From Candidatus Yanofskybacteria bacterium RIFCSPHIGHO2_02_FULL_43_17 (lineage in GTDB: Bacteria; Patescibacteriota; Minisyncoccia; 2-02-FULL-40-12; GWA2-44-9): 55,501 nt of DNA. The notes beneath the pieces were generated by a model. That model did not search any database. It was not told where the DNA came from and was given only the letters and a program-made list of their open reading frames with translations. Location: contig MGJU01000013.1 of assembly GCA_001794435.1 (NCBI GenBank), positions 157,196 through 212,696 on the forward strand. Reading direction: 5' to 3'. Positions 14 to 35,625 of the stretch are shown in pieces (position 1 is the stretch's first letter; each line of letters begins with the position of its first letter). The position numbers and the translations under genes were made by a program.

Positions 14-757
14 TCATTTTTTGGTAAATAGGTTGTATTTGATGATATGGAAAATTCCCGCCAATCCATCTTTCCAGTTAATTTTTTTACCCTCTTCATA
101 GGTACGGCCTCTATAAGATATCGGTACCTCTATTATTCTAAGATTCAATTTCCCCACCCAGGCAGTAAGTTCCGGATCAATTCCGAATCGCTTAGATGCA
201 AGATGGGGATATATTTGTCTCATCGCATTTCCCGAAAACACTTTATAACAAGTGTACATATCGGTCAGTCGAACACCGCTCAAAACGTTAGAGAACCAAT
301 TCAGCGCTTGGCTGAACAAATAACCGTGTTTATAAACAATCTGATTGTTCGATTTTGTTTCGAGAAAGCGCGACCCGTAAACAACGTCGACTTTCCCATC
401 AATGATCGGCGCAATGAGAATAGGGTATTCTTTAGGGTTATACTCCATATCAGCATCCTGGATAAGCACGATATCGCCAGTCGCTTCCTTGAATCCCCTC
501 TTTACGGCCACCCCCTTGCCTTGATTCTTCTCCAAAAAAATCACCCTGTGGATAATCGACTTCGCAAGTCGATTATCCACAGCTGTAGGTATGGATCTCA
601 GGATTTCCCGCGAACCGTCGGTTGAACAATCGTCAACGATAATTATTTCCTTTTCAAGCGACAACTCCACGCTTTCCACGGCAGAAATAAGCTGGGACAA
701 TGTCCTTTCTTCATTAAAAACAGGTATTATTATGCTTAACTTTCTAAATTGAGTCAT
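14..757 (-). CDS. Family 2 glycosyltransferase, Dpm1/Ppm1/GtrB-like polyprenyl-phosphate sugar synthase
   Basis: 247-aa ORF with GT-A motifs IIIPVFNEE, VDDCSTDGS, QDADMEYNP; carries an in-frame REP palindrome at 546-582 (read as VDNRLAKSIIHR). Confidence 0.8.
   Translation of the reverse strand: MTQFRKLSIIIPVFNEERTLSQLISAVESVELSLEKEIIIVDDCSTDGSREILRSIPTAVDNRLAKSIIHRVIFLEKNQGKGVAVKRGFKEATGDIVLIQDADMEYNPKEYPILIAPIIDGKVDVVYGSRFLETKSNNQIVYKHGYLFSQALNWFSNVLSGVRLTDMYTCYKVFSGNAMRQIYPHLASKRFGIDPELTAWVGKLNLRIIEVPISYRGRTYEEGKKINWKDGLAGIFHIIKYNLFTKK
546..582. repeat. REP palindrome copy 1 (17-bp arms, 3-nt loop), inside GT2 CDS
   Basis: ctgtggataatcgactt-cgc-aagtcgattatccacag, perfect inverted arms; identical to copies at 18514, 20279, 30223, 30500, 31217. 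Confidence 0.95.
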
Positions 758-3242: not shown

Positions 3243-6200
3243 CTACGGGATTATGTAGAAGAGGCGCAAGGCGTTAGCCATACCGCTGCCTTCAAAGAAT
3301 CTGGCGAACAACCCGTTGGCTTCGCAAATTTTACCGTTCCATGTCCTGCCTAACTGCTGACAGTGCATTGCCATATAGTGAGGATATAAACCCGATGTGG
3401 GTGGCGGAGGCGAAGAATTTAAGTCTGCTGGAGGTGGTGAATAAGGAGGCGGAGTAGCTTCATAAGTAGGCGGGGGTGTATATTCTGTTGTTGGATAAGG
3501 GGTGTAAGTTGTCGCAGTTGCGTTATCTACGCAAGATGTGCCATTCCAGTATTGAGTTGACGAACATGTTGGCGATGGAGTGTAGGTAGAGGTTGGATAT
3601 GGTGTATAGGAAGTTGAAGTAGAAGATTTACAACTGCTGGTTGTATAATCCCACCACTGATCGGAAGGACAGGATGGGGGCGGGATATAAGAAGTGGTGG
3701 GATTGGGTTTACAGATATTACCCGCCGAATCCCAGTAGTAGCCCGAACCGCAAGAAGTGGCAGTCGAAGTACATGATTGCCTTGCTGTATCCCACCACTG
3801 ACCAGACGGACAAGAGGGAGAGGGAGTATAAGTTGTTGAGGTCGGATAAGGTGAGTAGGTACTTCCCTGATAAGTGCTGCAGGATCCAAAACCGCTTACA
3901 CTTGTAGAGTTCAATGGTCCGCATTTGGTCCCATCGGAGTCGGACATACAGTAACCGCCGGCATTATTCACATACATCGTATGCGAACCGCTCGGACAAG
4001 AACCACTGCTGGTTGGCGTACCAGACGGATATGGATATGGAGAAGATGTCGGCTGAACGGGACAGTTTATTTTGCTTGTACCAGCAGAGTTATAACAAGT
4101 GCCGCCGTAATTCTCCTGATCGTTCAGACAGAACCCCCCTGATTCACTATGGTAGTGATGGCCGGATGGACAACCTCCGACACCAGGCGATGGATATGGT
4201 GAATAAGTGACTCCGCCACAGTCGTTAGGACACGAAGCAGATGTCTCGTTTGAATCGCAAAATTTATTATTGTTACAGCTTTGACCCTGATATCCGCTTT
4301 CACAACTGCTTGGTGCCCCCAAACTAACACCATCCAAACTTATAGAGGGTCCCGTGTTACTCCCTTCGTGGCAATTAAAGTAGCCCTTCTCGCACCAAAC
4401 TGTATAGCCGGGAGAAGTTCCGTTTTTGGTTGCATTCGGGTAAAAACAACTATATATTTCGCCAGTGCCGCCGGTAGTAGTCGGGTATGGGGAATAGGTC
4501 GGAGATGTCCCCGGAGAACCAGTCGGATATGGCGAAGGAGAAGTTGAAACTGTGTCGGAACAAATAGGAATACCGAATTCTTGCCATTTGCTCTGATCGC
4601 CACCGCCTGGCTTCCATCCGGCAAAGTATTTAGTTGAACAACTATTATAGACATTATTAATGTGGCCGGTATATTCACTATCAGTTCTATTGAGAATTGA
4701 TGAGGATTGTGTAGAGCCGTCTTTAAACTTCCATGTCTTATTTATCCAACCCCTATCCGGACCGGGCAAGTATGTCGGGGATGGAGAATAGAGCGGGTCC
4801 GGAAACCGGCAGTCATTGACGTATGGATCCCAAACACCGCCGCGTTTCTGGCATTCAAGTACCGGATTGCCTGACGGCGAGTAGATCGGATATGGCCCCG
4901 GCGAGTAAGTCGGCGGGGATTGGCACTGTCTACCGTCCCAATACTGGCCTTGAGGACAAGTCGGAATCGTAATTGGCGGACCGATAGGCGTAAATGATGG
5001 CAAAGGAACAACTGTCTTTGATTCACAAAGCGTTTTTGCTCTTACAAAATCCCCCGATTGGATCGCCGCAAAACATTCCGGTGACGGACCGACCGGCCTC
5101 GGTCCGGGATAATATGGCTGTCCGGGCGGAGGACTGAATCCGGGACCGGGTTGAGTGAATCCCGGAAATTGCCCCGGCGGAACATCGCCCGGTTGAAAAC
5201 CGGGGTACGGGCCTTGACCTGGAAATTGAGGGTATCCTCCGTCAGAAGGATATGCCCTGTATTCATTTGAAGTAACGTCCGAGGATTTCTGTACATTTTG
5301 ATTGTACTCCTGAAATTTCTGAATTGCCTCTTGCCCCCTGAAACCGGAAACATCATGTTTTGATCCAAAAGAAATACATTCTGGACCATTGATCGGATTA
5401 GAACAATATGAAAAACACTCTGCCTCAGAACGACATCCTCCCGGACCTCCTTGTTGGCTAAATACTTGTCTAAATTCATCCTTTCTTTGATTCATATTCT
5501 CGCCATCGGCTAGATGTCCCTTAATTTCTTCTATAATAAATCTAGCTTCCTGGGATTTGTTTGCTAAACCCAAACTTTCAATTTTTACCAATGCTCTCTT
5601 TGATCCTTCAAAACACCTCTGGCTAATGGATTCATCCGCTGCACCTCGTTCGCACTGTTGCGGATCAAATCCTATTTCACTTCTCATGATCTCAAAGATC
5701 TGGCTTCCGGCATCAAACCTGTTTCTTTCTTCATCCGGTATAAAGTCCCTGCACGTTTCCGGATTAGTTACACATTGCTCAAATTTGACGCCTGGAGCTT
5801 TCTGAGTGAAGAACTCCACCAACTTTAATCCCCTATCTACATCGGATTGAGTAGCAAAACCATTCTTTACGGCAAAACTGCCACAGGCCTTAGCAATTTC
5901 TATATCACGGTTTGAAAATGCCAGATCACAAGCATTTCTTATCTGACCTTCACCAACTAGTTCCCGCCCGTCAGGAAGAGTTAAAATGAACTTCTTAGAA
6001 TAATAATCCTTGACTTGCCCGACTTGCTGATGAGCCGCTTCAAGTTGTTTTACCCCGTCTTGTCCAAAAATTTCAGATGCAATTTGAGCGCAAACCGGAG
6101 GAATGCCCATTCCTTGGGTTGGATTCAAACAAAAGTTGCCGCAACCTTCCAAAGTACCGTCACCACACTGATATTTGCCGGCAGACAAGGCCTCTCTTAG

Positions 6201-6836
6201 TTTAATGGTAGCAGAGTCCTCGAATTGTTCAGCAAGCACTCTTTTTTCTTCGGGAATATATTTCTGAACTCGAGAGTCTTTAGCTAATTTTGCACATTTT
6301 CTTAACAGATCAATCGAAGCCGTATCCGGATCCATCGCTTCGCAATCGCGGAAATTTAATCCAACTTCTTTTGCCGCTTGAACTACGGAGTTTTTCTCCT
6401 CAATTATTTTTGCGGTTAAATTAAAATCAGTAGCTAATTTCGGATTTTTGGTTTTAAGTTTTTGGGCTAATTCGTTGGCTACTTTAACCAAACACTCCTC
6501 ATCTAAACACGTCTTTATATCGTTAAGAATCTTGCCTTTAATTTCGCTTAAAAAATCGTCAACGTGCTTAATTTCTTCCGCCGTATAAAGATCGTGCTTC
6601 TTCCCGATATCAGCGCAGACATCAATATATTGCTCCTGATTACATAATTCTAATGCCTGGTCCTTCGATGTTATGTCCTGACCAGTAGCAGAGCTTAAAT
6701 CATTAATAGCGGCTTGAATTTGGGCTTCTTCGGCGGCATTAGCAATAGATAAAAATAAAACAGCCGATGCCAAAAAGACGCCGGCCACAACAAACAATAC
6801 GACCCAGTGGTTTTTACAACAATATATTAAGTTCAT
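3243..6836 (-). CDS. Giant secreted/anchored Cys-rich, Pro/Ser/Thr/Tyr-rich surface protein (function unknown)
   Basis: 1197-aa ORF; N-terminal hydrophobic anchor; Pro/Gly/Tyr-rich centre; C-terminal third has repeated C-x3-[QY]-[WY]-W-[DN]-x-C mini-modules separated by TYSPYPT-type linkers. Confidence 0.7.
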   Translation of the reverse strand: MNLIYCCKNHWVVLFVVAGVFLASAVLFLSIANAAEEAQIQAAINDLSSATGQDITSKDQALELCNQEQYIDVCADIGKKHDLYTAEEIKHVDDFLSEIKGKILNDIKTCLDEECLVKVANELAQKLKTKNPKLATDFNLTAKIIEEKNSVVQAAKEVGLNFRDCEAMDPDTASIDLLRKCAKLAKDSRVQKYIPEEKRVLAEQFEDSATIKLREALSAGKYQCGDGTLEGCGNFCLNPTQGMGIPPVCAQIASEIFGQDGVKQLEAAHQQVGQVKDYYSKKFILTLPDGRELVGEGQIRNACDLAFSNRDIEIAKACGSFAVKNGFATQSDVDRGLKLVEFFTQKAPGVKFEQCVTNPETCRDFIPDEERNRFDAGSQIFEIMRSEIGFDPQQCERGAADESISQRCFEGSKRALVKIESLGLANKSQEARFIIEEIKGHLADGENMNQRKDEFRQVFSQQGGPGGCRSEAECFSYCSNPINGPECISFGSKHDVSGFRGQEAIQKFQEYNQNVQKSSDVTSNEYRAYPSDGGYPQFPGQGPYPGFQPGDVPPGQFPGFTQPGPGFSPPPGQPYYPGPRPVGPSPECFAAIQSGDFVRAKTLCESKTVVPLPSFTPIGPPITIPTCPQGQYWDGRQCQSPPTYSPGPYPIYSPSGNPVLECQKRGGVWDPYVNDCRFPDPLYSPSPTYLPGPDRGWINKTWKFKDGSTQSSSILNRTDSEYTGHINNVYNSCSTKYFAGWKPGGGDQSKWQEFGIPICSDTVSTSPSPYPTGSPGTSPTYSPYPTTTGGTGEIYSCFYPNATKNGTSPGYTVWCEKGYFNCHEGSNTGPSISLDGVSLGAPSSCESGYQGQSCNNNKFCDSNETSASCPNDCGGVTYSPYPSPGVGGCPSGHHYHSESGGFCLNDQENYGGTCYNSAGTSKINCPVQPTSSPYPYPSGTPTSSGSCPSGSHTMYVNNAGGYCMSDSDGTKCGPLNSTSVSGFGSCSTYQGSTYSPYPTSTTYTPSPSCPSGQWWDTARQSCTSTATSCGSGYYWDSAGNICKPNPTTSYIPPPSCPSDQWWDYTTSSCKSSTSTSYTPYPTSTYTPSPTCSSTQYWNGTSCVDNATATTYTPYPTTEYTPPPTYEATPPPYSPPPADLNSSPPPPTSGLYPHYMAMHCQQLGRTWNGKICEANGLFARFFEGSGMANALRLFYIIP

Positions 6837-17146: not shown

Positions 17147-19066
17147 CTATTTGATAGTTAGTTGTCGAATAAGTTCCGCTATCAACTTCCCCGTCTCCGG
17201 GTCAACGCTGGAATACTTCAGTCCTTCGTTAAGATCAATGAGCGCTTTCTCTTTGTTGTTAAGGGCGACATAAACAAGCGCGGAATTGTAGTAGACGCGA
17301 GGATTACCGGGGAGAAGTAGTTTTAATTTTTCTATATTTATTACCGTTTGAATAAAATCCCCCCGCTGTGCATAGATAACCGCCAAGTTTTGGTACGGGT
17401 AAAAAAAGCCGGGGTCAATCTCTATGGCCTTATTGAACTCTGCAATCGCGCCCTCAATGTCGCCCCTCGACTGCAATATGCTCCCGATATTAAAATGCGG
17501 CTGGGCAAAATCGTTCCCCGACCCGACGGCTTTTCTGTAATAAAACTCGGCCCGATCCATATCTCCTTGATTAAAATATCGGTTGCCAAGATTATTATTT
17601 ATCTTGATGCTGTCCGGCTCGTATTTGAGAATGTCTTTATAAAATTCGACGGGATTGCCCCATAAGACATTTCGCTGGACAGATTGATAACCAAAGAAAA
17701 GCAGGTAAGCTAGCAAGCCCGTAAGCAATAAGCCACGAAAAATTAGGTTTTTGGATTTTAAGAAATCAAACAGTTTAATCAAATAAAAAGAAGCTATGAG
17801 CCAAAAGCCGACCATCGGCAGATAAAGCCAGTGTTCGTATATTAAGGCGTTGATTGGCGTAATCCCGGAGACCATCGCCAGACCGATGAAAAACCAACCC
17901 GTTCCGAATAGCCAAATTCGGAATGGGAAAATTGTTACATTGTTAAATTGTCGAATTGTTGCACCTTCAGATTGTTGAATTGTTACATTGTTAAACCTCT
18001 CCTTCTTATACATAACAATTAAACAATATAGCAATATAGCAATGATTGTAGCACCAAGCCAGACCGGCCACTGGAACAGCGATGTATGCACCACCATACT
18101 TCGTTCCATATGAAGACCTGTGGGCACGAACAGTAAGCGGAAGTAATCAATCAGAACGTGCATAAAGGTAAAGAGGCGATAAATTATATTTTCCGAATAT
18201 GGGTTGGCTTTACTGTAGAAATTCAGAGTATTTTGAAAATTCAAAACCGTTAAGCGTAATATTCCGTAAACAGCAACAACCCCGAAATAAGGCAATGCTT
18301 CTTTAAACGCGTTCTTGACATCGAACACCTTAACGCCTGATGTCCCGCGGCCATCCAATGCCCGCCCGTCCTCTGGCGCGGTCGTTAATTTATTCTTATC
18401 GGAAAACGCGATATAAAACACCATCAAGAGAAAAGGAAATATAACTCCCGTTTCCCGGCTCAAAATCGCCAAAACAAAAGCCGCCAAAGACAAGGTTTTA
18501 AGCCACCGAAACCCTGTGGATAATCGACTTCGCAAGTCGATTATCCACAGGTAGAGGGCGAGGAGAATAAAGAACACCGACAACGGATCGCCACGGCCGG
18601 AGATATATGCAACAGCTTCGGTGTTGAGAGGATGAATAGCAAAAAAAAGCGCGGTTAAGAAGGCCACAATCTGGCCGGCATATCTTCGCAATAAAACAAA
18701 TACCAGCACTGCGTTGGCAATATGTATTGAGTTGCTTACTAAATGCCAAAGGAACGGTTTCGTTTCGGATACAACCCAATTAAGAGCAAAAGTGAAAAAG
18801 AGGAACGGTCTGTAATAGTTGCTCTGAAGTCCGATTCCAGCTAACGCATTGTTGGAAAACCAAAACTTTATACTTTCCCAATTTATTGAGTGGACGTAAA
18901 CATTGTTGATTATCCAATCATCGTCATCCCAAAAAAGCTCGTTGTTCAAGTTAAAAGAATAGACAAAACCGCCTATTACCACCAGGAATATAATCGGCAA
19001 CCATGCTTCTTTTTTATTCAGCAAGTTCATATTTATACTTTGAAAAAACCGGCCTATTCTTATCAT
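17147..19066 (-). CDS. TMTC-like polytopic membrane protein with C-terminal TPR repeats (paralog of 15210-17072)
   Basis: 639-aa ORF (alternative ATG at 19030); LFWDDDDWIINN motif, multiple TM helices, TPR repeats; contains three different mini-elements in frame. Confidence 0.6.
   Translation of the reverse strand: MIRIGRFFQSINMNLLNKKEAWLPIIFLVVIGGFVYSFNLNNELFWDDDDWIINNVYVHSINWESIKFWFSNNALAGIGLQSNYYRPFLFFTFALNWVVSETKPFLWHLVSNSIHIANAVLVFVLLRRYAGQIVAFLTALFFAIHPLNTEAVAYISGRGDPLSVFFILLALYLWIIDLRSRLSTGFRWLKTLSLAAFVLAILSRETGVIFPFLLMVFYIAFSDKNKLTTAPEDGRALDGRGTSGVKVFDVKNAFKEALPYFGVVAVYGILRLTVLNFQNTLNFYSKANPYSENIIYRLFTFMHVLIDYFRLLFVPTGLHMERSMVVHTSLFQWPVWLGATIIAILLYCLIVMYKKERFNNVTIQQSEGATIRQFNNVTIFPFRIWLFGTGWFFIGLAMVSGITPINALIYEHWLYLPMVGFWLIASFYLIKLFDFLKSKNLIFRGLLLTGLLAYLLFFGYQSVQRNVLWGNPVEFYKDILKYEPDSIKINNNLGNRYFNQGDMDRAEFYYRKAVGSGNDFAQPHFNIGSILQSRGDIEGAIAEFNKAIEIDPGFFYPYQNLAVIYAQRGDFIQTVINIEKLKLLLPGNPRVYYNSALVYVALNNKEKALIDLNEGLKYSSVDPETGKLIAELIRQLTIK
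17931..18045. repeat. 8-nt-period inverted array (ATTGTTNN)n ... (AACAATNN/AGCAATNN)n inside CDS
   Basis: eight 8-nt units at 17931-17994, seven starting ATTGT (17-nt direct duplication attgttacattgttaaa); reverse-oriented units aacaatta aacaatat agcaatat agcaatga at 18014-18045. Confidence 0.75.
18314..18388. repeat. T-hairpin element copy T2 (long, composite form), inside CDS
   Basis: cttgacatcg...ttaacgcctgatgtcccgcggccatccaatg-cccgcccgtcctctggcgcg-gtcgttaa; shares about 55 nt with T4 in opposite orientation; read as LTTAPEDGRALDGRGTSGVKVFDVK. Confidence 0.7.
18514..18550. repeat. REP palindrome copy 2, inside CDS
   Basis: Identical 37-mer; read in frame as LWIIDLRSRLSTG. Confidence 0.95.
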
Positions 19067-20624
19067 TGTTTTTAACCAAGATTATAGCATTTTCGTTAAT
19101 AAACACCACTTTCCAGTCAGAATTCCTAATTATACTTTTTAAGAACGCTTGCCCCCACGGCGTCGCGTCAGTGTGGCCGAAAAATATGAAGTTAATACCA
19201 TATTTGTTGGAAAACTCCTCCCACTTCTCTCTGTTTTCCTGCATCGGCTTGTATATCTCGCTGAAAAATTCTACTGAATATGCCTCCGGGCGGTTATCAA
19301 CGAATACTTTTTCCTCCGGCAATTTCCATATCAGATAGCCGCCAATGTCAAAATTATTGAACATAGGCCCCTCTATATTATTCTTCTTAACAAAACTAGC
19401 CGCACGTTCCAGTCCGTCTGGAACTGAAAAACCGAAAGTTTTTGATAATCTCGCCCATTTATAATAACCTCCGCTCGCCACAAAAAAAATCATAAAAACC
19501 AGAAAAACGACCAGCAACATCTTGGCCGCCCACTGAAGCCTGGCTTCTGCCTGCCTCCAGAAGCCTGGCTTCTGGAAAGCTGAAAACACATCGGTTAGCA
19601 AGATTACCATCACCGGAAAAGATGCCAGCGCGTATAAGGGCAAATTGCGAAGCATCCTGAATCCGGCATAAATAAAGAAGGTGGAAATTAAAATTTCGAA
19701 AATCCTTTCTTTTGTCTTCTTGACGGTCAGCAAAAAAGAAACAACCAGAACCGCCGTTGAGATCTTAAAAATAAAAATCGACAAATTAAAACCGAATAAA
19801 TCAGCCAAAAAAGCAAGCGTTTGGTTTTCAACAATGCTGTAACCATATTCTTTCAGGATATTAAAAGGCAGTAGCGCTCCCTGAATTCCGGCGGGATTTA
19901 TAAGAGTAGCCAATCCGATCAATCCGCCGACCAGTAACAATTTTTGTATTACGTATTTCGTATTTCGTATTATGGGATCAAATAAGCGGTCAATAAAAAA
20001 GGCCAAAAACAAGATTGGGCCGATGAAGAAATAGATGTGGAGGTTAACCCACAACAACTGCGCCAACGGCAAAAACCATAACCAAGACGGAGTTTTAACA
20101 TCGGGAGTCCCGCGGACTTCCGATGTTGTTAATTCGTATTTCGCCTTAAACAACGCGGATAAGAAAAACGCTAGTATCAAAAAACTGAAAATCTCCGGCC
20201 TCACCTCCGTCCGGGAAATAAATATAAATATTGAGAGAACGAAAGAAACAATTATTGGCCAAAAACCTACTCTAACCCCTGTGGATAATCGACTTCGCAA
20301 GTCGATTATCCACAGGGGTTTAATGGTTAAAAGCAAGAGTATAAACGTCGCCAGAACTACAAAAATCTTAAGCAAGATAAGGCCGGTGAATCCGCCCAAA
20401 TTATAGACGCCGTAAAATATTACTTCGCTTAGCCAATGATGATTTGTAAACGGAAAGTCCGGCTCGGTGAAAGAGAATAGGTTGGTTGTCGGAACACTTT
20501 TTGTCTCCCAAATTATCTCCCCTGTCTTCAAATGCCGCCCGATATCCTGGCCGATAGAATCAAAATTGTGAACCAGAAAAACGGCCAGAAGACCGAAAAG
20601 AAGAATAAAAGTCAGGAGTTTCAT
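19014..20624 (-). CDS. Polytopic membrane protein, possibly GT-C-type glycosyltransferase (function uncertain)
   Basis: 536-aa ORF with more than 10 TM helices and a soluble C-terminal domain; contains four different mini-elements in frame; overlaps the start of 17147-19066. Confidence 0.5.
   Translation of the reverse strand: MKLLTFILLFGLLAVFLVHNFDSIGQDIGRHLKTGEIIWETKSVPTTNLFSFTEPDFPFTNHHWLSEVIFYGVYNLGGFTGLILLKIFVVLATFILLLLTIKPLWIIDLRSRLSTGVRVGFWPIIVSFVLSIFIFISRTEVRPEIFSFLILAFFLSALFKAKYELTTSEVRGTPDVKTPSWLWFLPLAQLLWVNLHIYFFIGPILFLAFFIDRLFDPIIRNTKYVIQKLLLVGGLIGLATLINPAGIQGALLPFNILKEYGYSIVENQTLAFLADLFGFNLSIFIFKISTAVLVVSFLLTVKKTKERIFEILISTFFIYAGFRMLRNLPLYALASFPVMVILLTDVFSAFQKPGFWRQAEARLQWAAKMLLVVFLVFMIFFVASGGYYKWARLSKTFGFSVPDGLERAASFVKKNNIEGPMFNNFDIGGYLIWKLPEEKVFVDNRPEAYSVEFFSEIYKPMQENREKWEEFSNKYGINFIFFGHTDATPWGQAFLKSIIRNSDWKVVFINENAIILVKNNDKNRPVFSKYKYELAE
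19534..19575. repeat. 17-nt direct repeat of a palindromic unit (gaagcctggcttc) inside CDS
   Basis: ctgaagcctggcttctg at 19533-19549 and cagaagcctggcttctg at 19558-19574 (16/17 identical); translated QKPGFWRQAEARLQW. Confidence 0.7.
19944..19971. repeat. Heptamer array (NCGTATT)x4, inside CDS
   Basis: ttgtatt acgtatt tcgtatt tcgtatt; translated IRNTKYVIQ. Confidence 0.75.
20095..20132. repeat. T-hairpin element copy T3 (short form), inside CDS
   Basis: ttaacatcgggagtcc-cgc-ggacttccgatgttgttaa; read as LTTSEVRGTPDVK. Confidence 0.8.
20279..20315. repeat. REP palindrome copy 3, inside CDS
   Basis: Identical 37-mer; arms extend to 20 bp (cccctgtgg...ccacagggg, 20276-20318); read as LWIIDLRSRLSTG. 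Confidence 0.95.
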
Positions 20625-21593: not shown

Positions 21594-24500
21594 CTATCTT
21601 TGGAAGGTAGGACCGTACAAGGGCAAACTCTTTAGAGTACCGGTTACTGAAGCGGTATCCGCGGCAGTTGTTCCGTTGTTGTAGTCAGCAACCCAGTTGA
21701 TCAATCCGGCTTCGTTATCAAGCAGCCGTACTTGGAAGTAGTCAGCCGCTCGTCCTGTGTCGGTTGTCTTAGCATAGTTCGTGTTCGGGTTGGTGATCTG
21801 GATGTAGAAGGTCTTTGTCAAACCTCCGCCGATCTCCACATCTTTGCTTGAGAAGTCAAAGGTTAGAGATGCGACATTCGGCGAGGATGTCTTAGCATCC
21901 TGCGTCAAGGTATTGTTGTCAATCAACACATTGCCTTCATCATATACAGAGAAAGCAGTGCTTGCGCCTTCTCCAACAATATACTGACCGGATGATACCA
22001 CGCCAAACTTGAAGGAACCTGAACCAGCGGCTTCGTTGTCAAATCGCAGCGTTGAGTCGGAAAGACCTCTCGCCGTGATCGAGAACTTGAACACCGTTGG
22101 TGTGCCTGTAAAGCTGTAAGGCGCCGCCAAGGCAACCTGTGCGATTTCCGGATACACCCTATAGACATACTGGTCGTTTGAACCAAGCACATCATTGATG
22201 TTTGAGGATGTACCGTCAAGAACCGTGCCTGAACCGTCTCCAACCGCTCTGAATCCGTTAGCGTGACTTCCGTTGTACTTGTCAACTAAGTCCAACGAGA
22301 AGTACACGGATGCCGGCGAAGCGTTAGTCGGTGTCGCACCTTCTGTCTTGGTCTTCATATCGGCATTAACCGCTATATCCAACGAAGAATCCTGCGGTAC
22401 ATAAGGCCTGTTGGCGTCTCCGGTTGACCACGCAAAGTTCACAGAAGCCGCATTACCAATCGATTGACTGGTCGTTAATGTGCTTCCCGCTTTGTTCTTA
22501 TAGGTCAAGTGAACTGTCTTGACATTGTTCTTGGCATGAGTGTTTTCCGTGGAATCAGACGCAGTGAATGTCAATTTCTCGATGTATTGGCCTTCATCCG
22601 TAGAGCTCAACCTGAACTTGGATACCGGAGCGTTGGCCTGTCCCCAGTAGATAGCACCTTTCTGCGGACTGTCTGCCGAGGTCGCCAAGGTCATCGAACC
22701 GTTGTTCTTTACGGTCAAGACCTGCGTCGGAGCGGCAGCAGTGCCGTTCACTTTTTGGTTGCCCGGGTTGACCGTGTTGGAATCAACATCCAACGCGGTT
22801 ACATCTGCCGTTCCGGCGATATCAAAGGCGTAATCGTCTCCGGCTGTACCGGACGCGGTGTTGTTGGACAAGTCAACCCTGACCAACATCGTCTTTGAAG
22901 TACCGGCTGGAATGTTCCAGTTCAAATTGCTGAAGGTCATCGTACCGGTTCCGGAAGTACCCAGAATGTTGCTGGTTACCTTGTCGGTACCGGCAATCAA
23001 AGTGCCTGTCTCTGACTCATACAACTGAACTTTGGCCATAGCGTTGGCAACCGTTACAGCAGTGTCTTCGTCAGGCGATACACCTTCGTCAAATGTCGTT
23101 TCAGACGAACCGTTATCGTTCGCGTAACCGGTGATCTTGATGGTGGTTACCTTAAGCGCGGAGGCTTGGCCTGCGGCAAAAGTAACACCTACGACATTAG
23201 TATCTTTCGTGCCTCTGATCTTTGTTTGATCGGCAGGACTGCCGGCCAAGCTCAAAGTCAATGCGGAAGAAGAAAGCGTGATGTTGTTACCGGCGATATC
23301 CGCTCGCGGAACTATGTCGGCAGCGGCAACCGAGGTATTCGTGCCGGCGTATTTCAACACCGTCACATCTCCAGCATCATCCGAGTAGTCGTCAAGAACG
23401 GCTCTCAAGACATCTCCTGAAGCAAGCAAAACACCACTACCAGTATCGTCAGCGGTTATATCAGCCGTAACTTTGTAGTTGTATGTCTTACCGGCCATCC
23501 AATCAACAGTATCAGTAAACGATTTCTCAGCTCCTGTTACTGCATCAGGGCATGCGCCAGAATTAGATGCGGTGAATGCAGAACCATCCTGCGGACCGAT
23601 AACAACAGCGTTGAGATCTTCATCCCAAACCTTGAAATCGGTCAGGTCACCCCAGCCGTTTGTCGTGTCGGCAGCAGCATCGTATGTGCCATTGCCGGTG
23701 TCGTCCTTACAGAGAACGAATTCGTGCTTCTTGGCTTCAATGTTTGAAGCGGCGGTTACGGTGTATCGGAGCAGAGTAACATCAGTTACCGTGGTTCCAA
23801 CCGTAGTAGCCGAAGGACCGACGAATGTAAGCGTCAATGCGCCTCCCTGAAGAGTCAAGGTGGTAGCATCTGATGCGCTGTCTAAGGCCGTATCAGTTAC
23901 CGCCATCGGCTGACCAAACTGGTCGCCGATAACATAGGTGTCGGTGTCATACTCAAAGTAAAGGTCAACGGTTTCATCTTTCTTTCCACCCACATCACCT
24001 AATACTTTGAAGACCGCATTACCGCCTTTGGCGATAAAGTGGCCGGAACCGAGGTCAAAGACCACATAACCGTTGGAAGTTGAAGTGCCTGCCCACTCCT
24101 GACCAGTTAAGGTTTGTAACTTAACATTGGTCAAGTCGGATGGTTTCAAAGTTCCGCCATTGATCATGGTAATTCTCTTTACGGTTCCGCCTTCGGTCGC
24201 GGTTGTGTACTTGAATTCAGACAACAACGCCTGCCTCTGACCGACAGTTGGGTCAGACAATGAACCGGATTTCGCGACTGTTACTGTGCCGGATGAAGCT
24301 CCTGATACAGTGAAACTGTTGCCGCTCACGGGCAAACCGGATACTGAAGCTCCTCCGGTTAAGGTTACTCCTGTCAACTGAACGTAGTTGACATTGCCAA
24401 CCGTAGCCGTCGCCATATCACCGACTACTGAGAGGTCTTGAGTACCGCTAACAGCTTTGTTCAGCAAGAATGTGAGAGTACCGTCCGCGGATGAAAATGA

Positions 24501-25280
24501 TTTACCCGAAGTCAGACGAGTAGCTCCCTCATAGACATAAACATTGCCAAAGTCGGCCGCAACGCCAGGACCAGATCTTTTGACGGTTAAAGTGTTAACC
24601 GTACCGGAACCGCTTAGTCGGAATCTCAAGTATTCAACTCCGACTGCGTTTCTGGTGATAGTCGCACCAGCTGGGTTGCCGGGAGCCAAGCTCGCGGACA
24701 ACGGACCAGATGGAGCCGGTGTAACTGAACCGCCTCTTGTGTATGCGGGAACCTGATTTACCGAAGTATAGTCGGCACCCATACCATAGAGAGCTTTTTC
24801 AGCTGCGTTGATAACGAAGACTTTCTTGAAGAAGTTCGGGTCATCAGCGACTGCCTGCGCTCCGGAGGTATTAACCCATCGGAGATTGGCTACGTCTTCT
24901 CCTGTTGTTTCCAATCCATAGACCTTCTCATCTCCGTCAACTCGGAATAATCCGGAGGTTGGGAATGCATCTCTCGTTGCCGGAGAAACATTCTTCACCG
25001 CGGCGAATCCGCCAAGATGACCATAGAGTCCGAAGATCGCGGGATTCAAGAACAATCTCTTGTATCCCTGTTCATTGACGATATATACATCCGGATCGTC
25101 AGAACCGGCTGCGCTGACAGTGTCGCCCTCTTTGAGGCCATAGTCAGCTGGAGTCGCGCCCCATGCTGTTGGAGCAAGATACGCGACACCCGATAGCACC
25201 AATACGGTCGCTACCGCAGTAAGCACCGTGAAGGTTTTCAAAAACCTTTCTTGGGCCTTTTGTTTGAATAAAATATCCAT
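21594..25280 (-). CDS. Giant surface (S-layer-like?) protein with many Thr/Ser/Gly/Ala/Val-rich beta-type repeats
   Basis: 1228-aa ORF; signal peptide ending AWG/ATP; residues 49-183 paralogous to the 12583-13788 module; remainder low in Cys and charge. Confidence 0.7.
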   Translation of the reverse strand: MDILFKQKAQERFLKTFTVLTAVATVLVLSGVAYLAPTAWGATPADYGLKEGDTVSAAGSDDPDVYIVNEQGYKRLFLNPAIFGLYGHLGGFAAVKNVSPATRDAFPTSGLFRVDGDEKVYGLETTGEDVANLRWVNTSGAQAVADDPNFFKKVFVINAAEKALYGMGADYTSVNQVPAYTRGGSVTPAPSGPLSASLAPGNPAGATITRNAVGVEYLRFRLSGSGTVNTLTVKRSGPGVAADFGNVYVYEGATRLTSGKSFSSADGTLTFLLNKAVSGTQDLSVVGDMATATVGNVNYVQLTGVTLTGGASVSGLPVSGNSFTVSGASSGTVTVAKSGSLSDPTVGQRQALLSEFKYTTATEGGTVKRITMINGGTLKPSDLTNVKLQTLTGQEWAGTSTSNGYVVFDLGSGHFIAKGGNAVFKVLGDVGGKKDETVDLYFEYDTDTYVIGDQFGQPMAVTDTALDSASDATTLTLQGGALTLTFVGPSATTVGTTVTDVTLLRYTVTAASNIEAKKHEFVLCKDDTGNGTYDAAADTTNGWGDLTDFKVWDEDLNAVVIGPQDGSAFTASNSGACPDAVTGAEKSFTDTVDWMAGKTYNYKVTADITADDTGSGVLLASGDVLRAVLDDYSDDAGDVTVLKYAGTNTSVAAADIVPRADIAGNNITLSSSALTLSLAGSPADQTKIRGTKDTNVVGVTFAAGQASALKVTTIKITGYANDNGSSETTFDEGVSPDEDTAVTVANAMAKVQLYESETGTLIAGTDKVTSNILGTSGTGTMTFSNLNWNIPAGTSKTMLVRVDLSNNTASGTAGDDYAFDIAGTADVTALDVDSNTVNPGNQKVNGTAAAPTQVLTVKNNGSMTLATSADSPQKGAIYWGQANAPVSKFRLSSTDEGQYIEKLTFTASDSTENTHAKNNVKTVHLTYKNKAGSTLTTSQSIGNAASVNFAWSTGDANRPYVPQDSSLDIAVNADMKTKTEGATPTNASPASVYFSLDLVDKYNGSHANGFRAVGDGSGTVLDGTSSNINDVLGSNDQYVYRVYPEIAQVALAAPYSFTGTPTVFKFSITARGLSDSTLRFDNEAAGSGSFKFGVVSSGQYIVGEGASTAFSVYDEGNVLIDNNTLTQDAKTSSPNVASLTFDFSSKDVEIGGGLTKTFYIQITNPNTNYAKTTDTGRAADYFQVRLLDNEAGLINWVADYNNGTTAADTASVTGTLKSLPLYGPTFQR

Positions 25281-25995: not shown

Positions 25996-28900
25996 TTACT
26001 TTGCGAGGACTACCCTGCCCCCATAACCCCACACCAATCCATGTTCGGTAAGGGCCGGAGAAATCGTTGAGTTTGAGCCGGAATTGATAGCCCAGCGCTG
26101 ATTTCCTGTGTTATCTACACTAAATAACTTGCCGTTTTGAGTGGAGAAATAGACATTACCGGCGCCGTCTACGGCCAATTGTGCATTGAGGAGACCGTCG
26201 GCCTGGAATGGGGCTGGCCATTTCGCCGCGAGGTCTGATTTATTCAAGGCAAAAACCTGCGAACCGGAAGCGAAACTGGGGCTGTTGAAACCGACATAGA
26301 GCGTGTCTGACGATATGGCAACCATCGTGGCGGCGGAATAGTCCCACGGGGCAATACTGCTGGAATTTAAAATTGAACCGTCGGATGGAATATTGAATAA
26401 TTTGGGACCGGCGGCGGAGTAGGTTATACCTGTTGCCTTATCGTATGAGGGATTGGCGGGAGTGCTACCATTGGCGCCGGCATAGGATACCTGCCAAAGT
26501 TGAGCGCTGTCGGATGAATAAGTAGTGAAAAATTGATTCCCGCTTACTTTTCCGGCCACGATCATTATACCGTCATCCAACACAACTGGCGCAAATCCGC
26601 TCAAACCGGAAGCGCTTATCGGAAAGGGTGTTTTTATTGAACCGTCGGCGTTTAAAACAGCCAGCTTATCGGTGCCGCTTGTGTAAGTAAGGTGCGGTTC
26701 GCCTTTTGATGATACAGTAAACGTCAAAACCGTACTTGTATCGACGTAATCCCACTTGTCAGAACCATCCGAGGCCAGAGCGGTAAATGCCAGCACTCCG
26801 CCCGCGCCAATGCGGCCGAAGTATACGGTTCCGTCGGAAAGAACCGCCGGCGTGCCGATGCTTACATAAGTCTCATATTCCCATTGTTTGACGCCATTTT
26901 TATTCAGTTTAATCAATTTGTGGGACGAGCCGTCCGTAGCGCCGAAATAGATATTGCCGTCAGCGTCAGCCACCGGCTGGCTTACAATGTATCCTGATTC
27001 CAGTTCGTTAAATTCCCAGCTTACGGTTGCCGTCAGGCCTGGACCGACTACATCAGCAAAAGAAGTATGAAACTGGTCCTTGCCGAACATCGCCCAAGCG
27101 CCATGATCTAAAGCGGTCGGAAAACTAACCGTAGCCACATTCGAAATCCCCGAACACTTATCTGCATGACCGACATCGCAAGTCGGACTGTGGATAACTT
27201 TGGTCCTCAAAGCGAGGTAAAGCGTCAATCCGTATTCAGGAACAACATTAAAAGAAATACCTTGTTGCGCCCCCTTTATACCAACGCTCGGCAAACTGGA
27301 ACTGGCAACTTGTATAGCGACAGACCACCAGCTTTCACTTGCGGCATCGCTAAAACTGGTAGACGAGTAGCGCAGATCATAGCTTAAACTTGCCGTATTA
27401 TAATCGCCCGGATCGGGTGCAGTCCAGGTTGCGGTAATAGTGGGGGAACCGTGGGCGGCGATGAGATTGGTAACGACAGACGGTTTTGATGCTACGTCAC
27501 CGACCGTTATCAAGTCTTTTATGTTGTTAAATGTAACCGGGCCGATACCGCTGACATTCTGAATATCCTCTATTTGCGCGAAGGGGCCGTTGGTTGTGCG
27601 ATAATCAATAATTGCTTGCGATTTTACTTCACCAATACCGGGAAGAGACATCAACTCTTCTTTGTTTGCGGTGTTAATATTGATTTTCTCGGTTGATGAT
27701 TCTTCTTCCGGTTCTGGTGACGGCGATGGTGTCACCGACGGAGATGGTATCGGGGTTGGTGTCGAAGACGAACTTCCGCCACCGCTTCCGCTTCCGCCAC
27801 CTCCGCCAGTCGACGTAACAACCTGAATTGCCGTGCTATTACTGGTTTTGGGCGTTCCGTTGATACTATTTCCACTAGCATCTTTGTTTGTTGGCGTCCC
27901 GGAAAAATTTTTCCAATTTGAAGCATTGTTTCCAGCTTTCATCGGATCTATTCTCTCCATCGAATTTTTTGATATTGAGTCGCCGAAATACCAGGCCTCA
28001 CCAGCACCGCCAACTACATCTACAACGGCCCCGGCGCTATCAAATAGTCTTACTATTTCGCCCGTGTTGCTCAAACCTCCCTGACCGAAACTTACAGCCA
28101 AATCAGCTGTTGTGTCGCTTATTGTGTTGTCATCTGTTCTTTCGATGAGAAAGTAGGAATTAGCTTGGATAATCGTCCCTTCTGGAAAAATAATATCCGG
28201 AGAATCATCGGTTGAAACAAGTTGCCAGCTAGATATGTCTACTGGTGTGTTTTCAGTATTATACAGCTCGACCCACTCGTCGGTCGCGGAAGCCGAGGTT
28301 CCCGCCCAAGCAATTTCATTGACCACTACTCTGCCCAATGTCTTGGCTGCGGATAACTTTGGAGTAGGTGACGGAGTTGGTGTTTTTGGTGGTGTCGGTG
28401 TGGGAGATGGTGACAACTTTGGTGACATTGATGGTTTTGGTGATACCAATGGTGACAGAGATGGTGACATTTTGTTGTCACCTTTAGCGTCACCGCTGTC
28501 ACCATTATTTGTCACCACTGGTAAGGGTTTAATGTCGGGTGTCGCTAATTCGTCGTTAGCATCTGATGTCGAACTTGTGCCTAACTCTGCTAATTCATCG
28601 CTGTTATTACCGCCAAACCCAAACAAACTGGCAATCTGTGCCCAAAAGCTTGGCTTTTTTTGCTCTTGTTTCGCTAGATATTCTTTCTTTGCTATCTCTG
28701 CTTCTTCTAAAAATAATTTTAGGGCGCCGGCGCCGCTAATAACAACTTCTTTAGACAACCTCTCCCAGTACCCGTCAAGGATGTAGGAGCCAATTTCTGA
28801 CGAATAAACATAAAAATTAATATTGCCGTCTTTTTCTTCCTGCACAAATGCTATCGGAAAGTCGGCTCCATTTTTATCCTGGTTAGTAACAAATAATCTT

Positions 28901-29691
28901 TCTGTACCATTGACTCTTATTCTTTTTAGATTGTTTATACTTGGTTTTATGTATTCTCTGTTGCTAATGGTGTCTCTGCTAAAGAAATTGTTATTAGAAT
29001 AATTCGCAACTCTATCCAAGTAACTGCCAATATCAGATAACACGACTGGTTTTTCTCTGTTTCTAACCAATCTTGAAACAACTTGAAAATTATCCGGATT
29101 CCATTTAGCCATTTCGTGTTCGTAAGGACTGCCTAAATCAAGAACAGGTGGGTGTGGGTCATTTCTAGTGTGGTCTGGCACTCCGGCGTCTTCCAATAAG
29201 TGCAATACATGGCCGAAAGCGATGAAAGCCCTTTGTTTATCGCCTTTTGCGTAATCCTGAATCGCCCTATCGTATGAGAAATCGTGTATTGAATCAGCGC
29301 CCGATATGGCCGCGTATCCGGTCATTTGGCTGTTATAGAAGTCCTTCTGCGTACCACCAAAAGCCCACTTTTTTGAGGAAAAGGTAGGTACGCCTGCGGT
29401 GAATACCGACTGAAGCCCTCGGTCATAAACCGGGTCATAAAAATGGCTGAAAAACCTGCCCCCGTCGTCCTCATCAATTGAGCCCTTTATAAGCCACTGT
29501 TTCTCCTCTTGAGTTATCGTCTTGTCTGTAAAACTTAAATTATAGAAATTAGCTATCTCGTCAGTCAGCGCCGGATGAGTGGTGTTTTGAGAATAAGCAA
29601 AAATCGGGCTCGCGTTTACGAGTACCAAAAGGACGCTTAATAGCGCCCCTCCTAAAATAAATTTATGGTTTATAAACCTTCTATTTTCCAT
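25996..29691 (-). CDS. Secreted multidomain protein: Zn-PLC/P1-nuclease-like N-domain, lamin-tail domain, ComEA-type HhH DNA-binding domain, beta-propeller repeats
   Basis: 1231-aa ORF; HVLHLLEDAGVPDHTRND (PLC/P1-like); VVVNEIAWAGTSASATDEWVELYN...SNTGEIVRLFD (LTD); ININTANKEELMSLPGIGEVKSQAIIDYR...VSGIGPVTFNNIKDLI (ComEA HhH, about 27505-27692); DGNIYFG / DGTVYFG repeats. Confidence 0.7.
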   Translation of the reverse strand: MENRRFINHKFILGGALLSVLLVLVNASPIFAYSQNTTHPALTDEIANFYNLSFTDKTITQEEKQWLIKGSIDEDDGGRFFSHFYDPVYDRGLQSVFTAGVPTFSSKKWAFGGTQKDFYNSQMTGYAAISGADSIHDFSYDRAIQDYAKGDKQRAFIAFGHVLHLLEDAGVPDHTRNDPHPPVLDLGSPYEHEMAKWNPDNFQVVSRLVRNREKPVVLSDIGSYLDRVANYSNNNFFSRDTISNREYIKPSINNLKRIRVNGTERLFVTNQDKNGADFPIAFVQEEKDGNINFYVYSSEIGSYILDGYWERLSKEVVISGAGALKLFLEEAEIAKKEYLAKQEQKKPSFWAQIASLFGFGGNNSDELAELGTSSTSDANDELATPDIKPLPVVTNNGDSGDAKGDNKMSPSLSPLVSPKPSMSPKLSPSPTPTPPKTPTPSPTPKLSAAKTLGRVVVNEIAWAGTSASATDEWVELYNTENTPVDISSWQLVSTDDSPDIIFPEGTIIQANSYFLIERTDDNTISDTTADLAVSFGQGGLSNTGEIVRLFDSAGAVVDVVGGAGEAWYFGDSISKNSMERIDPMKAGNNASNWKNFSGTPTNKDASGNSINGTPKTSNSTAIQVVTSTGGGGGSGSGGGSSSSTPTPIPSPSVTPSPSPEPEEESSTEKININTANKEELMSLPGIGEVKSQAIIDYRTTNGPFAQIEDIQNVSGIGPVTFNNIKDLITVGDVASKPSVVTNLIAAHGSPTITATWTAPDPGDYNTASLSYDLRYSSTSFSDAASESWWSVAIQVASSSLPSVGIKGAQQGISFNVVPEYGLTLYLALRTKVIHSPTCDVGHADKCSGISNVATVSFPTALDHGAWAMFGKDQFHTSFADVVGPGLTATVSWEFNELESGYIVSQPVADADGNIYFGATDGSSHKLIKLNKNGVKQWEYETYVSIGTPAVLSDGTVYFGRIGAGGVLAFTALASDGSDKWDYVDTSTVLTFTVSSKGEPHLTYTSGTDKLAVLNADGSIKTPFPISASGLSGFAPVVLDDGIMIVAGKVSGNQFFTTYSSDSAQLWQVSYAGANGSTPANPSYDKATGITYSAAGPKLFNIPSDGSILNSSSIAPWDYSAATMVAISSDTLYVGFNSPSFASGSQVFALNKSDLAAKWPAPFQADGLLNAQLAVDGAGNVYFSTQNGKLFSVDNTGNQRWAINSGSNSTISPALTEHGLVWGYGGRVVLAK
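27171..27197. repeat. Degenerate/rearranged REP remnant inside CDS
   Basis: cgacatcgcaagtcg (14/15 to the REP centre) followed by ctgtggataa (10/10 to the REP arm start); translated VIHSPTCDVG. Confidence 0.4.
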
Positions 29692-30222: not shown

Positions 30223-30259
30223 CTGTGGATAATCGACTTCGCAAGTCGATTATCCACAG
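30223..30259. repeat. REP palindrome copy 4, intergenic
   Basis: Identical 37-mer, loop cgc; 39-nt with flanking c/g. Confidence 0.95.
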
Positions 30260-30499: not shown

Positions 30500-30536
30500 C
30501 TGTGGATAATCGACTTGCGAAGTCGATTATCCACAG
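30500..30536. repeat. REP palindrome copy 5, immediately 5' of the RAYT gene
   Basis: Identical arms, loop gcg (opposite orientation to copy 4); ends 13 nt before the ATG at 30550. Confidence 0.95.
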
Positions 30537-30549
30537 GTATACTGCTGGA

Positions 30550-31215
30550 ATGGAAAATGTTTATCACACATTAAATCGTGGAGTAGAGAAACGAGAAATC
30601 TTTATGGATAAACAAGATTATCTTAGATTTATCCACAATCTTTATGAGTTCAATGACGAGGATAGGATTGAGAATTCTATCAAGATTTTTCTAACTGATC
30701 CTAAGCTAGCCGATACTACTACTAGAAAGAGAAGAAAAACCCTCGTTGATATTCTTGCTTTTTGTTTGATGCCCAACCATTATCACCTGATGCTTTCACC
30801 GCAAGTCAAAAACGGAATTCCCAAGTTTATGGCTAAAGTTAATATCGGTTACGCCAAATATTTCAACCAAAAATACGAAAGAGTTGGCGCATTGTTTCAG
30901 GGAAGATACAAACAAGTACCAATCACTGACAATACTCATTTTCTCCATTTGCCGTTCTATATTCACTTTAACCCCCTCGACTTAAAATTTCCGGAATGGA
31001 GAGAAAACAAAATAGCAAGTCCGCAAAAGACGCTCGAGTTTCTCGAGTCCTACAAATGGAGTAGCCACTTAGAATATCTCGGCGTAAAAAATTATGGCTC
31101 GGTTTTAAATAAAAAAGTTTTAAACGAAGTTTTCGATGGAAGCGCCGGTTATAAAAAACTTGTTGAGACATATCTAAAAGACATCCAGGTAGATAGCGAA
31201 GTTTCTCTTGAATAA
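30550..31215 (+). CDS. REP-associated tyrosine transposase (RAYT; IS200/IS605-like HUH Y1 transposase family)
   Basis: 221 aa from the ATG at 30550; HUH motif in LMPNHYHLML, catalytic Tyr context FQGRYKQVPI, N-terminal YHTLNRGVEKREIF; flanked on both sides by REP copies. Confidence 0.8.
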   Translation: MENVYHTLNRGVEKREIFMDKQDYLRFIHNLYEFNDEDRIENSIKIFLTDPKLADTTTRKRRKTLVDILAFCLMPNHYHLMLSPQVKNGIPKFMAKVNIGYAKYFNQKYERVGALFQGRYKQVPITDNTHFLHLPFYIHFNPLDLKFPEWRENKIASPQKTLEFLESYKWSSHLEYLGVKNYGSVLNKKVLNEVFDGSAGYKKLVETYLKDIQVDSEVSLE

Positions 31216-31216
31216 T

Positions 31217-31253
31217 CTGTGGATAATCGACTTGCGAAGTCGATTATCCACAG
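31217..31253. repeat. REP palindrome copy 6, immediately 3' of the RAYT gene
   Basis: Identical arms, loop gcg; starts 2 nt after the RAYT stop; lies between convergent genes so may also terminate both. Confidence 0.95.
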
Positions 31254-35579: not shown

Positions 35580-35625
35580 ATAAAGTTAAAAAGTTATAAA
35601 GTTTATAATAATCAGTATAAACTTT
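35580..35625 (-). terminator. Octamer array (ANAAAGTT x3) plus 10-bp hairpin overlapping the stop of the GH1 gene
   Basis: ataaagtt aaaaagtt ataaagtt; hairpin aaagtttata-N8-tataaacttt (35598-35625) includes the last codons SLY and the stop. Confidence 0.6.

Follow-up and report, generated by a model that had tools for sequence, protein, structure and literature searches.

A palindromic repeat assigned to a REP/RAYT system lies in frame within a family 2 glycosyltransferase gene of a Candidatus Yanofskybacteria bacterium

In-frame palindromic repeats within protein-coding genes are already known, both as the Rickettsia palindromic elements (RPEs) and, since a survey published in 2013, as repetitive extragenic palindromes (REPs) linked to REP-associated tyrosine transposases (RAYTs). 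RPEs encode 35-50 residues and, to our knowledge, have no associated transposase. Their length is given as about 105-146 bp (PMC3184786; Ogata et al. 2000, as cited in PMC3733652 and PMC3184786). The 2013 survey reported REPs 'entirely located within ORFs' (open reading frames) for RAYT-associated GTAG families (Di Nocera et al. 2013, BMC Genomics 14:522, PMC3733652). The hosts in that survey included tRNA synthetase and tRNA-modification genes, some genes held two inserts, different REPs were seen at about the same site of orthologous Xanthomonas recB genes, and a flexible-loop location was proposed for the inserts (PMC3733652). Here we describe an element of this kind in a 55,501-nt stretch of DNA, hereafter the window, from Candidatus Yanofskybacteria bacterium RIFCSPHIGHO2_02_FULL_43_17 (contig MGJU01000013.1, positions 157,196-212,696), a tiny groundwater member of the Candidate Phyla Radiation (CPR). 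The element is a 37-nt palindrome located in frame within a gene encoding a family 2 glycosyltransferase (GT2), and the same window encodes a transposase of the Y1/HUH type. We consider it likely that the palindrome is a mobile REP of a REP/RAYT system, that it sits in frame in a tolerated loop of a GT2 that remains functional, and that the REP copies are renewed. An initial annotation of this DNA had recognized the in-frame REP at 546-582, a reading borne out by the sequence, by its six copies, by the ORF and by the Pfam match of the host. It had also supposed that in-frame insertions were undescribed for REP/RAYT systems, which the Di Nocera survey shows to be wrong.

The element (CTGTGGATAATCGACTTCGCAAGTCGATTATCCACAG, window 546-582) is a perfect palindrome having fully complementary 17-nt arms and a CGC loop. 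The window contains six mismatch-free copies of the 37-mer (at 546, 18514, 20279, 30223, 30500 and 31217; Table 1), compared with none in 100 dinucleotide-preserving shuffles of the window, which served as the control for chance occurrence. The 37-mer is predicted to fold as one single hairpin with a free energy of -27.7 kcal/mol as RNA (z = -7.3) or -17.9 kcal/mol as DNA (z = -8.6), and in neither case was any of 200 shuffles predicted to be as stable. When a collection of species-representative genomes was searched with a degenerate 37-mer pattern, 28 additional copies were found, all in two Candidatus Yanofskybacteria metagenome-assembled genomes (MAGs), 17 in JACPNL01 and 11 in MGKI01. These, the six window copies and one copy in L005 (loci outside the window are given L numbers) comprise the set of 35 copies. 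The family consensus is (A)C-37mer-G(T), 39-41 nt in length, with the flanking C present in 32 and the flanking G in 33 of the 35 copies. The GT2 copy is flanked by c...c on the plus strand and thus its palindrome is 37 nt, not the 39 nt of the initial annotation, although the in-frame block is still the 13 codons stated there.

GTAG or GTGG at the hairpin foot is a hallmark of RAYT-type REPs (PMC6006769, PMC3733652). The 37-mer has GTGG at nucleotides 3-6 and CCAC on the opposite arm, and a copy beside the transposase gene of L028 has GTAG/CTAC in place of GTGG/CCAC. The tetranucleotide is located inside the paired stem base rather than 0-2 nt outside the stem. By its copy numbers and hairpin z-scores the element is a short, near-identical, multicopy hairpin, as is expected of a REP. 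It does not fit the description 'mostly extragenic', for 16 of the 35 copies (~46%) are located deep within ORFs of 175-639 aa.

Table 1. Features of the window and intragenic REP copies at other loci. Host names at loci outside the window were read from recognisable motifs in the translations and are suggestive only.
Feature	Position or locus	Strand	Remarks
GT2 glycosyltransferase gene	14..757	-	247 aa; Pfam Glycos_transf_2 PF00535, E = 1.3e-31; like ArnC/DPMS/GtrB catalytic domain
REP copy 1	546..582	+	in frame in GT2 gene, encodes A59-R71 (AVDNRLAKSIIHR); CGC loop on + strand
REP copy 2	18514..18550	+	in frame as LWIIDLRSRLSTG in TPR-containing membrane protein gene 17147..19066 (-)
REP copy 3	20279..20315	+	in frame as LWIIDLRSRLSTG in membrane protein gene 19014..20624 (-)
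REP copy 4	30223..30259	+	intergenic, inverted relative to copy 5
REP copy 5	30500..30536	-	intergenic, end 13 nt upstream of transposase ATG
REP copy 6	31217..31253	-	intergenic, start 1 nt past transposase stop codon
RAYT-like Y1/HUH transposase gene	30550..31215	+	221 aa; H77-Y-H79 motif; invariant Y137 in YIHxNP
MnmA	L010, L025		the L010 gene holds two REPs; L025 shares one of the sites
Cysteine desulfurase	L011, L022		shared site
Tgt	L026, L031		shared site
AlaRS	L030		in-gene REP
O-antigen-ligase-like protein	L014		in-gene REP
PlsY-like protein	L018		in-gene REP
GT2	window 546, L005		shared site; loop flipped
Two window membrane proteins	18514, 20279; L027, L021		ortholog REPs at matching sites

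The window transposase matched Pfam Y1_Tnp (PF01797) with 37.2 bits (cutoff 23 bits) and also matched NCBIfam NF047646 (REP_Tyr_transpos). Its H77-Y-H79 and Y137 residues were invariant in two homolog alignments, and from its position we infer that Y137 is the catalytic tyrosine. The protein therefore has the Y1_Tnp domain, the HUH motif and the conserved tyrosine of a RAYT. REPs flank the gene not only in the window but also in L028 and L016, the loci at which JACPNL01 and MGKI01 each encode one ortholog (82-86% identical) with REPs on both sides. One transposase gene apiece was found in the window and among the REP-bearing loci of JACPNL01 and of MGKI01. Repeat flanking in three related genomes suggests that the transposase has been inherited vertically. 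The family numbers 4367 homologs, mainly from Yanofskybacteria and other Patescibacteria, annotated merely as 'transposase'. Given the Y1_Tnp and NCBIfam matches, the HUH motif, the REP-flanked orthologs in L028 and L016 and the GTGG/GTAG foot, the assignment of the 37-mer as the REP of a REP/RAYT system with the transposase encoded at 30550-31215 is supported, in agreement with the initial annotation. A PDB sequence search with the transposase returned ISDra2 TnpA as the only match, and in Foldseek the core of the predicted structure resembled the TnpA proteins of ISDra2 and IS608 and, more weakly, the E. coli RAYT (4er8). Structure was dropped as proof of RAYT membership because the mean predicted local distance difference test (pLDDT) score was 59 and Foldseek backed just the general Y1/HUH fold. 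An extra C-terminal region of ~80 residues was not assigned a fold by the model.

The locus can be compared with each of the described systems. Like the RPEs, these palindromes are found in frame in many genes, including essential ones, of a small genome, with host proteins that are apparently functional, and the genes that carry them look intact. They depart from RPEs in size (39-41 nt and 13 residues) and in having a REP-flanked Y1 transposase gene. With the REPs of the Di Nocera survey they share short length, the tie to a RAYT and the presence of some copies wholly within ORFs, where they are coding. Those REPs are mostly intergenic, whereas here 16 of 35 copies are intragenic; those are GC-rich with an asymmetric GTAG/CGTC tag beside the stem, whereas these are AT-rich and symmetric with GTGG in the stem base; and the host here is a CPR bacterium, a group outside that survey. 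As in REPIN (REP doublets forming hairpins)/RAYT systems (PMC3116915, PMC2817692), there is one repeat-flanked Y1 gene per genome in the DNA examined and each genome has its own predominant variant. Unlike REPINs, the copies here are mostly singlets rather than inverted doublets, many are coding, and copy numbers are low (6 in 55.5 kb, with 11 and 17 pattern matches in the other genomes) rather than in the hundreds. The IS200/IS605 TnpA proteins (IS608, ISDra2; PDB 2vjv, 2xm3) match the transposase core, HUH motif included, best in both structure and sequence, and their mechanism serves as the model: the hairpin is recognised on single-stranded DNA and insertion leaves no target duplication. 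The differences from IS200/IS605 are that the hairpins here move without carrying the gene and that the transposase has the extra C-terminal region.

On each strand the REP can be read through in two frames, and TAA interrupts the third. The 16 intragenic copies were read in the PVD... frame (n = 11) or the LWI... frame (n = 5) and never in the stop frame, a distribution with P = (2/3)^16 = 0.0015 if frame were irrelevant, and all of them keep the downstream frame. That the stop frame goes unused argues for translation of the intragenic copies and against their splicing or bypassing. The initial annotation had noted that two frames were open on each strand and that both were used, and this held: the GT2 copy is read as A59-VDNRLAKSIIHR-R71 and two other window genes use the LWIIDLRSRLSTG frame. 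As the coding fraction of the window is ~0.91, genes hold fewer copies than random insertion would place there, but the shortfall is much smaller than 'extragenic' implies. In the membrane protein encoded at 19014..20624 most orthologs have a short loop that reads ...AKKHATFWP..., and scattered orthologs have LWI[INT]D..SRLSTG, variously decayed, at that point.

Several observations were made at the other intragenic sites. The MnmA-like gene of L010 (4203-5360, minus strand) has in-frame REPs at residues 45-57 and 318-330. In the MnmA-like gene of L025 (~4520-4560) the JACPNL REP is located between KPW and CLW, and in MGKI this KPW/CLW site is occupied by an in-frame tandem repeat, (GAAATATC)x4, that reads EISKYRNIEIS; hence, this loop seems to tolerate another kind of insert. 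In L027 (~7640-7712) an in-frame REP is followed immediately by a decayed partial second copy (TGTTGATAAACGACTTGCGAAGTCGTTAT), which is read in the other frame as VDKRLAKSL and is absent from the window ortholog.

The GT2 host gene is intact. The protein keeps all residues that are invariant across a 30-sequence ortholog alignment, its ratio of nonsynonymous to synonymous substitutions (dN/dS) against three orthologs is 0.08-0.12, the identical protein is called on 10 contigs of up to 218 kb, and the gene order GT4-GT2-GT4 (GT4, family 4 glycosyltransferase) is conserved, including a 14-nt overlap with the upstream GT4 gene, as in L002. The retained residues and low dN/dS support purifying selection and an intact gene, the latter as the initial annotation had assumed. 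D42-D43 and D101-A-D103 are conserved, the DD and DXD residues of a GT-A fold. The REP-encoded residues follow the D42-D43 motif (IVDDCSTDGS) and precede N78-QGKG. The earlier placement upstream of NQGKG was therefore correct, but the DXD motif proper (D101-A-D103) lies downstream of the insert rather than before it.

The AlphaFold (AF2) model of the GT2 was confident (pLDDT 83, predicted template modelling score, pTM, 0.85) and its top Foldseek matches were ArnC (9asc), DPMS (5mlz) and GtrB. The protein ends in a single modelled helix (residues 228-244); solved relatives are 300-355 aa in length versus 247 aa here. In the model REP-coded residues 59-61 form a short helical turn, residues 62-65 have pLDDT <50 and are the least confident stretch of the N-terminal half, and the last REP-coded residues form the start of strand beta3 (residues 68-74). 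The model thus supports location of the insert in a low-confidence alpha2-beta3 loop of a confident GT-A fold, in keeping with the surface loop that had been anticipated. In Rossmann-like GT-A folds the alpha2-beta3 connection is on the far side of the sheet from the nucleotide-binding edge.

Evidence for insertion comes from the GT2 orthologs. The homolog set comprised the 120 best matches, drawn from Yanofskybacteria and related Patescibacteria at 62-85% identity to the window GT2, and the loop could be parsed in 114 orthologs. A basal loop of 15-17 residues (for example, ILTEYQDKYKVIF) was found in 76 of these, a result that bears out insertion rather than native sequence, and 38 had expanded loops encoded by palindromic DNA. 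The expanded loops fell into type A (n = 9), type B (n = 13) and type C (n = 14), and two fit no type. Type A, which includes the window GT2, is the REP family of window 546-582. L005 carries a perfect 37-mer with a compensatory T/A to A/T arm change and a flipped loop, L001 carries a copy with two mismatches, and in both of these independent assemblies the REP is at the same junction as in the window GT2. In other type-A orthologs the protein sequence shows a decayed loop, as in SADNRLAKSVIRR and PVDNRHRESVIYR. Type B has the loop ILYHISKSVEGGPPQ, encoded by ATATTATACCACA-N10-TGTGGAGGGCGGCCCTCCACA, and is carried by P0002-4, the closest relatives of the window GT2 (84-85% identity). Its palindrome, TGTGGAGGGCSGCCCTCCACA, is a dispersed repeat found at 34 metagenome loci of varied contexts (L032-L065), and the family unit ATATTATACCACA-N10-TGTGGAGGGCSGCCCTCCACA is also present at L002 2910 and L007 10183. 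Type B often lies in frame within long ORFs, the longest of 902 aa, where it reads [SVYDNI]VEG[GRS]PP[QH], and it adjoins its own Y1 transposase genes (L035, L050, L056), the products of which are 28-33% identical to the window transposase. Within L002, L007 or L008 the type-B palindrome was not repeated. Type C, TAACGACATTCAGTGTCGTTA between two TCCACAG motifs, resembles the REP variant downstream of the L016 transposase gene.

On a neighbour-joining tree of the GT2 proteins with the loop masked the loop types were interspersed. As about a third of the orthologs hold either the REP described here or a palindrome of the two other families, the GT2 loop is, as judged from these alignments, a site that is recurrently permissive or targeted. 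The REP block directly abuts V-[IV]-[FL] in every one of the nine type-A orthologs, and the REP-coded H/Y/R-R takes the place of the native Y/H-K; the upstream residues vary. The net gain is +10 residues in the window GT2 and +8 to +16 in the other REP-bearing orthologs, and never a clean +13. The expectation of exactly 13 extra residues therefore failed, and in both the GT2 and the membrane protein the loops have been remodelled around the insert. An in-place swap of type B for type A via their shared TGTGGA/TCCACA ends was also considered. It was rejected on the evidence of the 3' junctions, which are not alike: E-I-K is retained ahead of I/V-L-F in type B, but type A directly adjoins V-I-F. 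The flank logos of the 35 loop-oriented copies showed only the palindrome extension (A)C...G(T) and no target-site motif beyond it. At two empty sites YACA is present where the REP 3' end (CCACAG) sits, in the GT2 of L009 (AAATACAAGGT) and in the membrane protein of L066 (GCTACATTTTGG), which are too few for calling a motif.

The REPs at orthologous sites are far more alike than the genomes that carry them. Synonymous divergence (dS) between the genomes is 0.8 to >2.6, and thus saturated. The orthologous-site REPs of Tgt, MnmA, the membrane protein and GT2 differ just by a compensatory arm pair, with 35 of 37 positions identical outside the loop, and the two cysteine desulfurase copies are identical. 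The variants are usually genome-specific, all 17 JACPNL copies having ATAAACGAC and all six window copies ATAATCGAC, and MGKI01 holds both. The loop is flipped in the GT2 pair and in the TPR pair, and the TPR copy in L027 (7676) has ATAAACGAC in one arm and ATAATCGAC in the other, which results in a stem mismatch; this copy may be an intermediate of a compensatory change. With the REPs near-identical while dS is saturated, neutral vertical inheritance cannot, on these estimates, give the orthologous REPs observed. Exchange between REP copies, target-specific re-insertion and selection on the DNA itself remain. We prefer a combination in which resident copies are renewed or homogenised and insertion into a permissive loop recurs, although the data do not separate these options. 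The compensatory arm changes and flipped loops at orthologous sites lend support to a bolder proposal, that REP hairpins in essential CPR genes are actively kept identical to the current master sequence of the genome, but we put this forward tentatively and regard it as rather unlikely.

By analogy to the IS200/IS605 and RAYT enzymes, the transposase would bind the REP hairpin on single-stranded DNA and cut and join at the hairpin foot. In a genome of mostly coding DNA most landing places would be genes, and survival within a gene would require whole codons, one of the two stop-free frames and a dispensable protein loop. The GT2 copy would have met these demands in the alpha2-beta3 connection, where it would be translated as AVDNRLAKSIIHR, with IIHR replacing the native Y/H-K residues at the start of strand beta3 and the enzyme staying functional. 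Resident copies may then be kept young by gene conversion with other REPs, for which the palindromic arms would allow either orientation, or by re-insertion at a specific target.

Could the 13 residues instead be native to the GT2 loop of this lineage, the other copies being derived or due to chance, so that no insertion occurred? Nine orthologs do have VD[NK]RL..S.IHR-like loops with the same 3' junction, and in the model IIHR is built into strand beta3. This explanation seems scarcely credible, given that identical 37-mers are found at five more window loci and at 28 loci of two other genomes, that copies are present in unrelated genes, in two frames, in both orientations and in intergenic DNA beside a transposase gene, that two thirds of the orthologs lack loop expansion and that the closest relatives have a different palindrome at the site. 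Palindromic repeats are also places where misassembly is possible, and with two of three frames open either way, an open frame would be unsurprising even in a GT2 pseudogene or an assembly chimera. Such an accident is nevertheless very unlikely, because the full-length ORF keeps every invariant residue, its low dN/dS and its gene order down to the GT4 overlap, and because the exact protein recurs on 10 contigs; the independent L005 and L001 assemblies, with their REPs at the same junction, also speak against it. A hairpin that is in the gene but untranslated, either removed from the mRNA or skipped by the ribosome, would have bypassing precedents in T4 gene 60, with its gap, and in the mobile 'byp' elements of yeast mitochondria. 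To a ribosome, a coding-region stem of about -28 kcal/mol would be a strong obstacle, and the insert peptide is predicted from the DNA sequence. Frame and stop content should not matter to an element that is removed or skipped, yet the stop frame is unused by the intragenic copies and the downstream frame is always kept, and the decayed ortholog copies evolve like ordinary protein. We therefore consider an untranslated hairpin highly unlikely.

Selection on the DNA itself could take the form of a cellular function, the REP copies being kept to bind or titrate the initiator DnaA with the transposase link secondary. The high-affinity DnaA box is given as TT[AT]TNCACA (Schaper and Messer 1995, as cited in PMC6006769), and TTATCCACA, a perfect match, is found in both arms of all 35 copies, so that each REP has an inverted pair of boxes. 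Nucleotide conservation despite saturated dS is the outcome expected from DNA-level selection, and the link has been considered before, in that some Y1 transposases are reported to have DnaA-like C-terminal domains (PMC6006769). Such a domain was rejected for the present transposase. Pfam scans of the window protein and 21 homologs gave no Bac_DnaA_C similarity in the C-terminal extension or elsewhere at E <= 10, and a PDB profile search with the transposase found no DnaA chains. Moreover, the box is broken in REP variants beside transposase genes (TTATCTACA in L028), CCCTCCACA stands in its place in type-B palindromes of this GT2 site, the window has neither a dnaA gene nor an origin, and the match was spotted post hoc. 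Two further TTATCCACA sites, at 36388 and 36417, are 29 nt apart in a gene (35612..36880, minus strand) for a family 1 glycoside hydrolase (GH1). They were rejected as REP relics or an origin, being native, ordinary GH1 codons (VVDN, and LWIT of the conserved LWITFNE motif). The box coincidence stays unexplained, and a DnaA-related function of the REPs seems improbable.

Returning to the mobile REP of a REP/RAYT system, several points weigh against it. As a REP the element is atypical, being AT-rich and fully symmetric with GTGG within instead of beside the stem. The NF047646 match of the transposase (E = 2e-10, 40.7 bits) falls under the 80-bit cutoff of that family, and in the transposase model, with its low pLDDT, the C-terminal half is disordered and the E. 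coli RAYT 4er8 ranks no higher than 26th among the Foldseek matches. The tree behind recurrent insertion is built from ~240 residues of unbinned metagenome proteins, and recombination or lateral transfer of GT2 genes could mimic the polyphyly of loop types. No clean empty/filled pair differing by 39 nt was found for either the GT2 or the membrane protein. Finally, the presence of the 13 residues in the mature protein is read solely from nucleotide data.

Other observations concern the surroundings of these features. REP copies 4 and 5 (30223-30536) form an inverted pair, 240 nt apart, upstream of the transposase gene, and may represent a REPIN-like doublet, though its spacer would be unusually long. 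At window 27189 (minus strand), within ORF 25996..29691, TTATCCACAG followed by tccgacttgcgatgtcgg gives a short hairpin like the inner REP stem-loop, and this may be a decayed or rearranged REP in the gene of a 1231-aa LTD/HHH protein. A 192-aa ORF antisense to the GT2 gene (window 47..625, plus strand) passes straight through the REP; with two open frames on either strand, the palindrome leaves spurious antisense ORFs unbroken. The ORFs at 3243..6836 and 21594..25280 (~1200 aa each) and at 19014..20624 (536 aa) had no Pfam match; their neighbours are GT4, GT2, Wzy_C/TPR, PMT-like and TMTC-like genes, a setting of cell-envelope glycosylation.

We found no paper on in-frame REPs in CPR bacteria or Patescibacteria. 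What is new here is the lineage, the ~46% coding share, a symmetric AT-rich element of whole codons, one loop that has accepted three palindrome families and upkeep of nucleotide sequence across saturated divergence. The phenomenon of in-frame REPs is thereby extended to the CPR, where it is unusually frequent, and a single GT2 loop has taken in at least three palindrome families, two of them with a Y1 transposase gene found beside copies. Such insertions provide a natural catalogue of insertion-tolerant loops in CPR proteins and warn annotators that short 'lineage-specific inserts' in these proteins can be mobile DNA. They also offer a tractable case for how REP populations stay homogeneous, as the coding context makes neutral divergence measurable. 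If active upkeep proved true, a transposase or recombination mechanism would renew or 'home' REPs in coding DNA, or else selection would act on the DNA, with paired DnaA boxes as dispersed initiator sites, and protein loops would be parking places for a functional DNA element.

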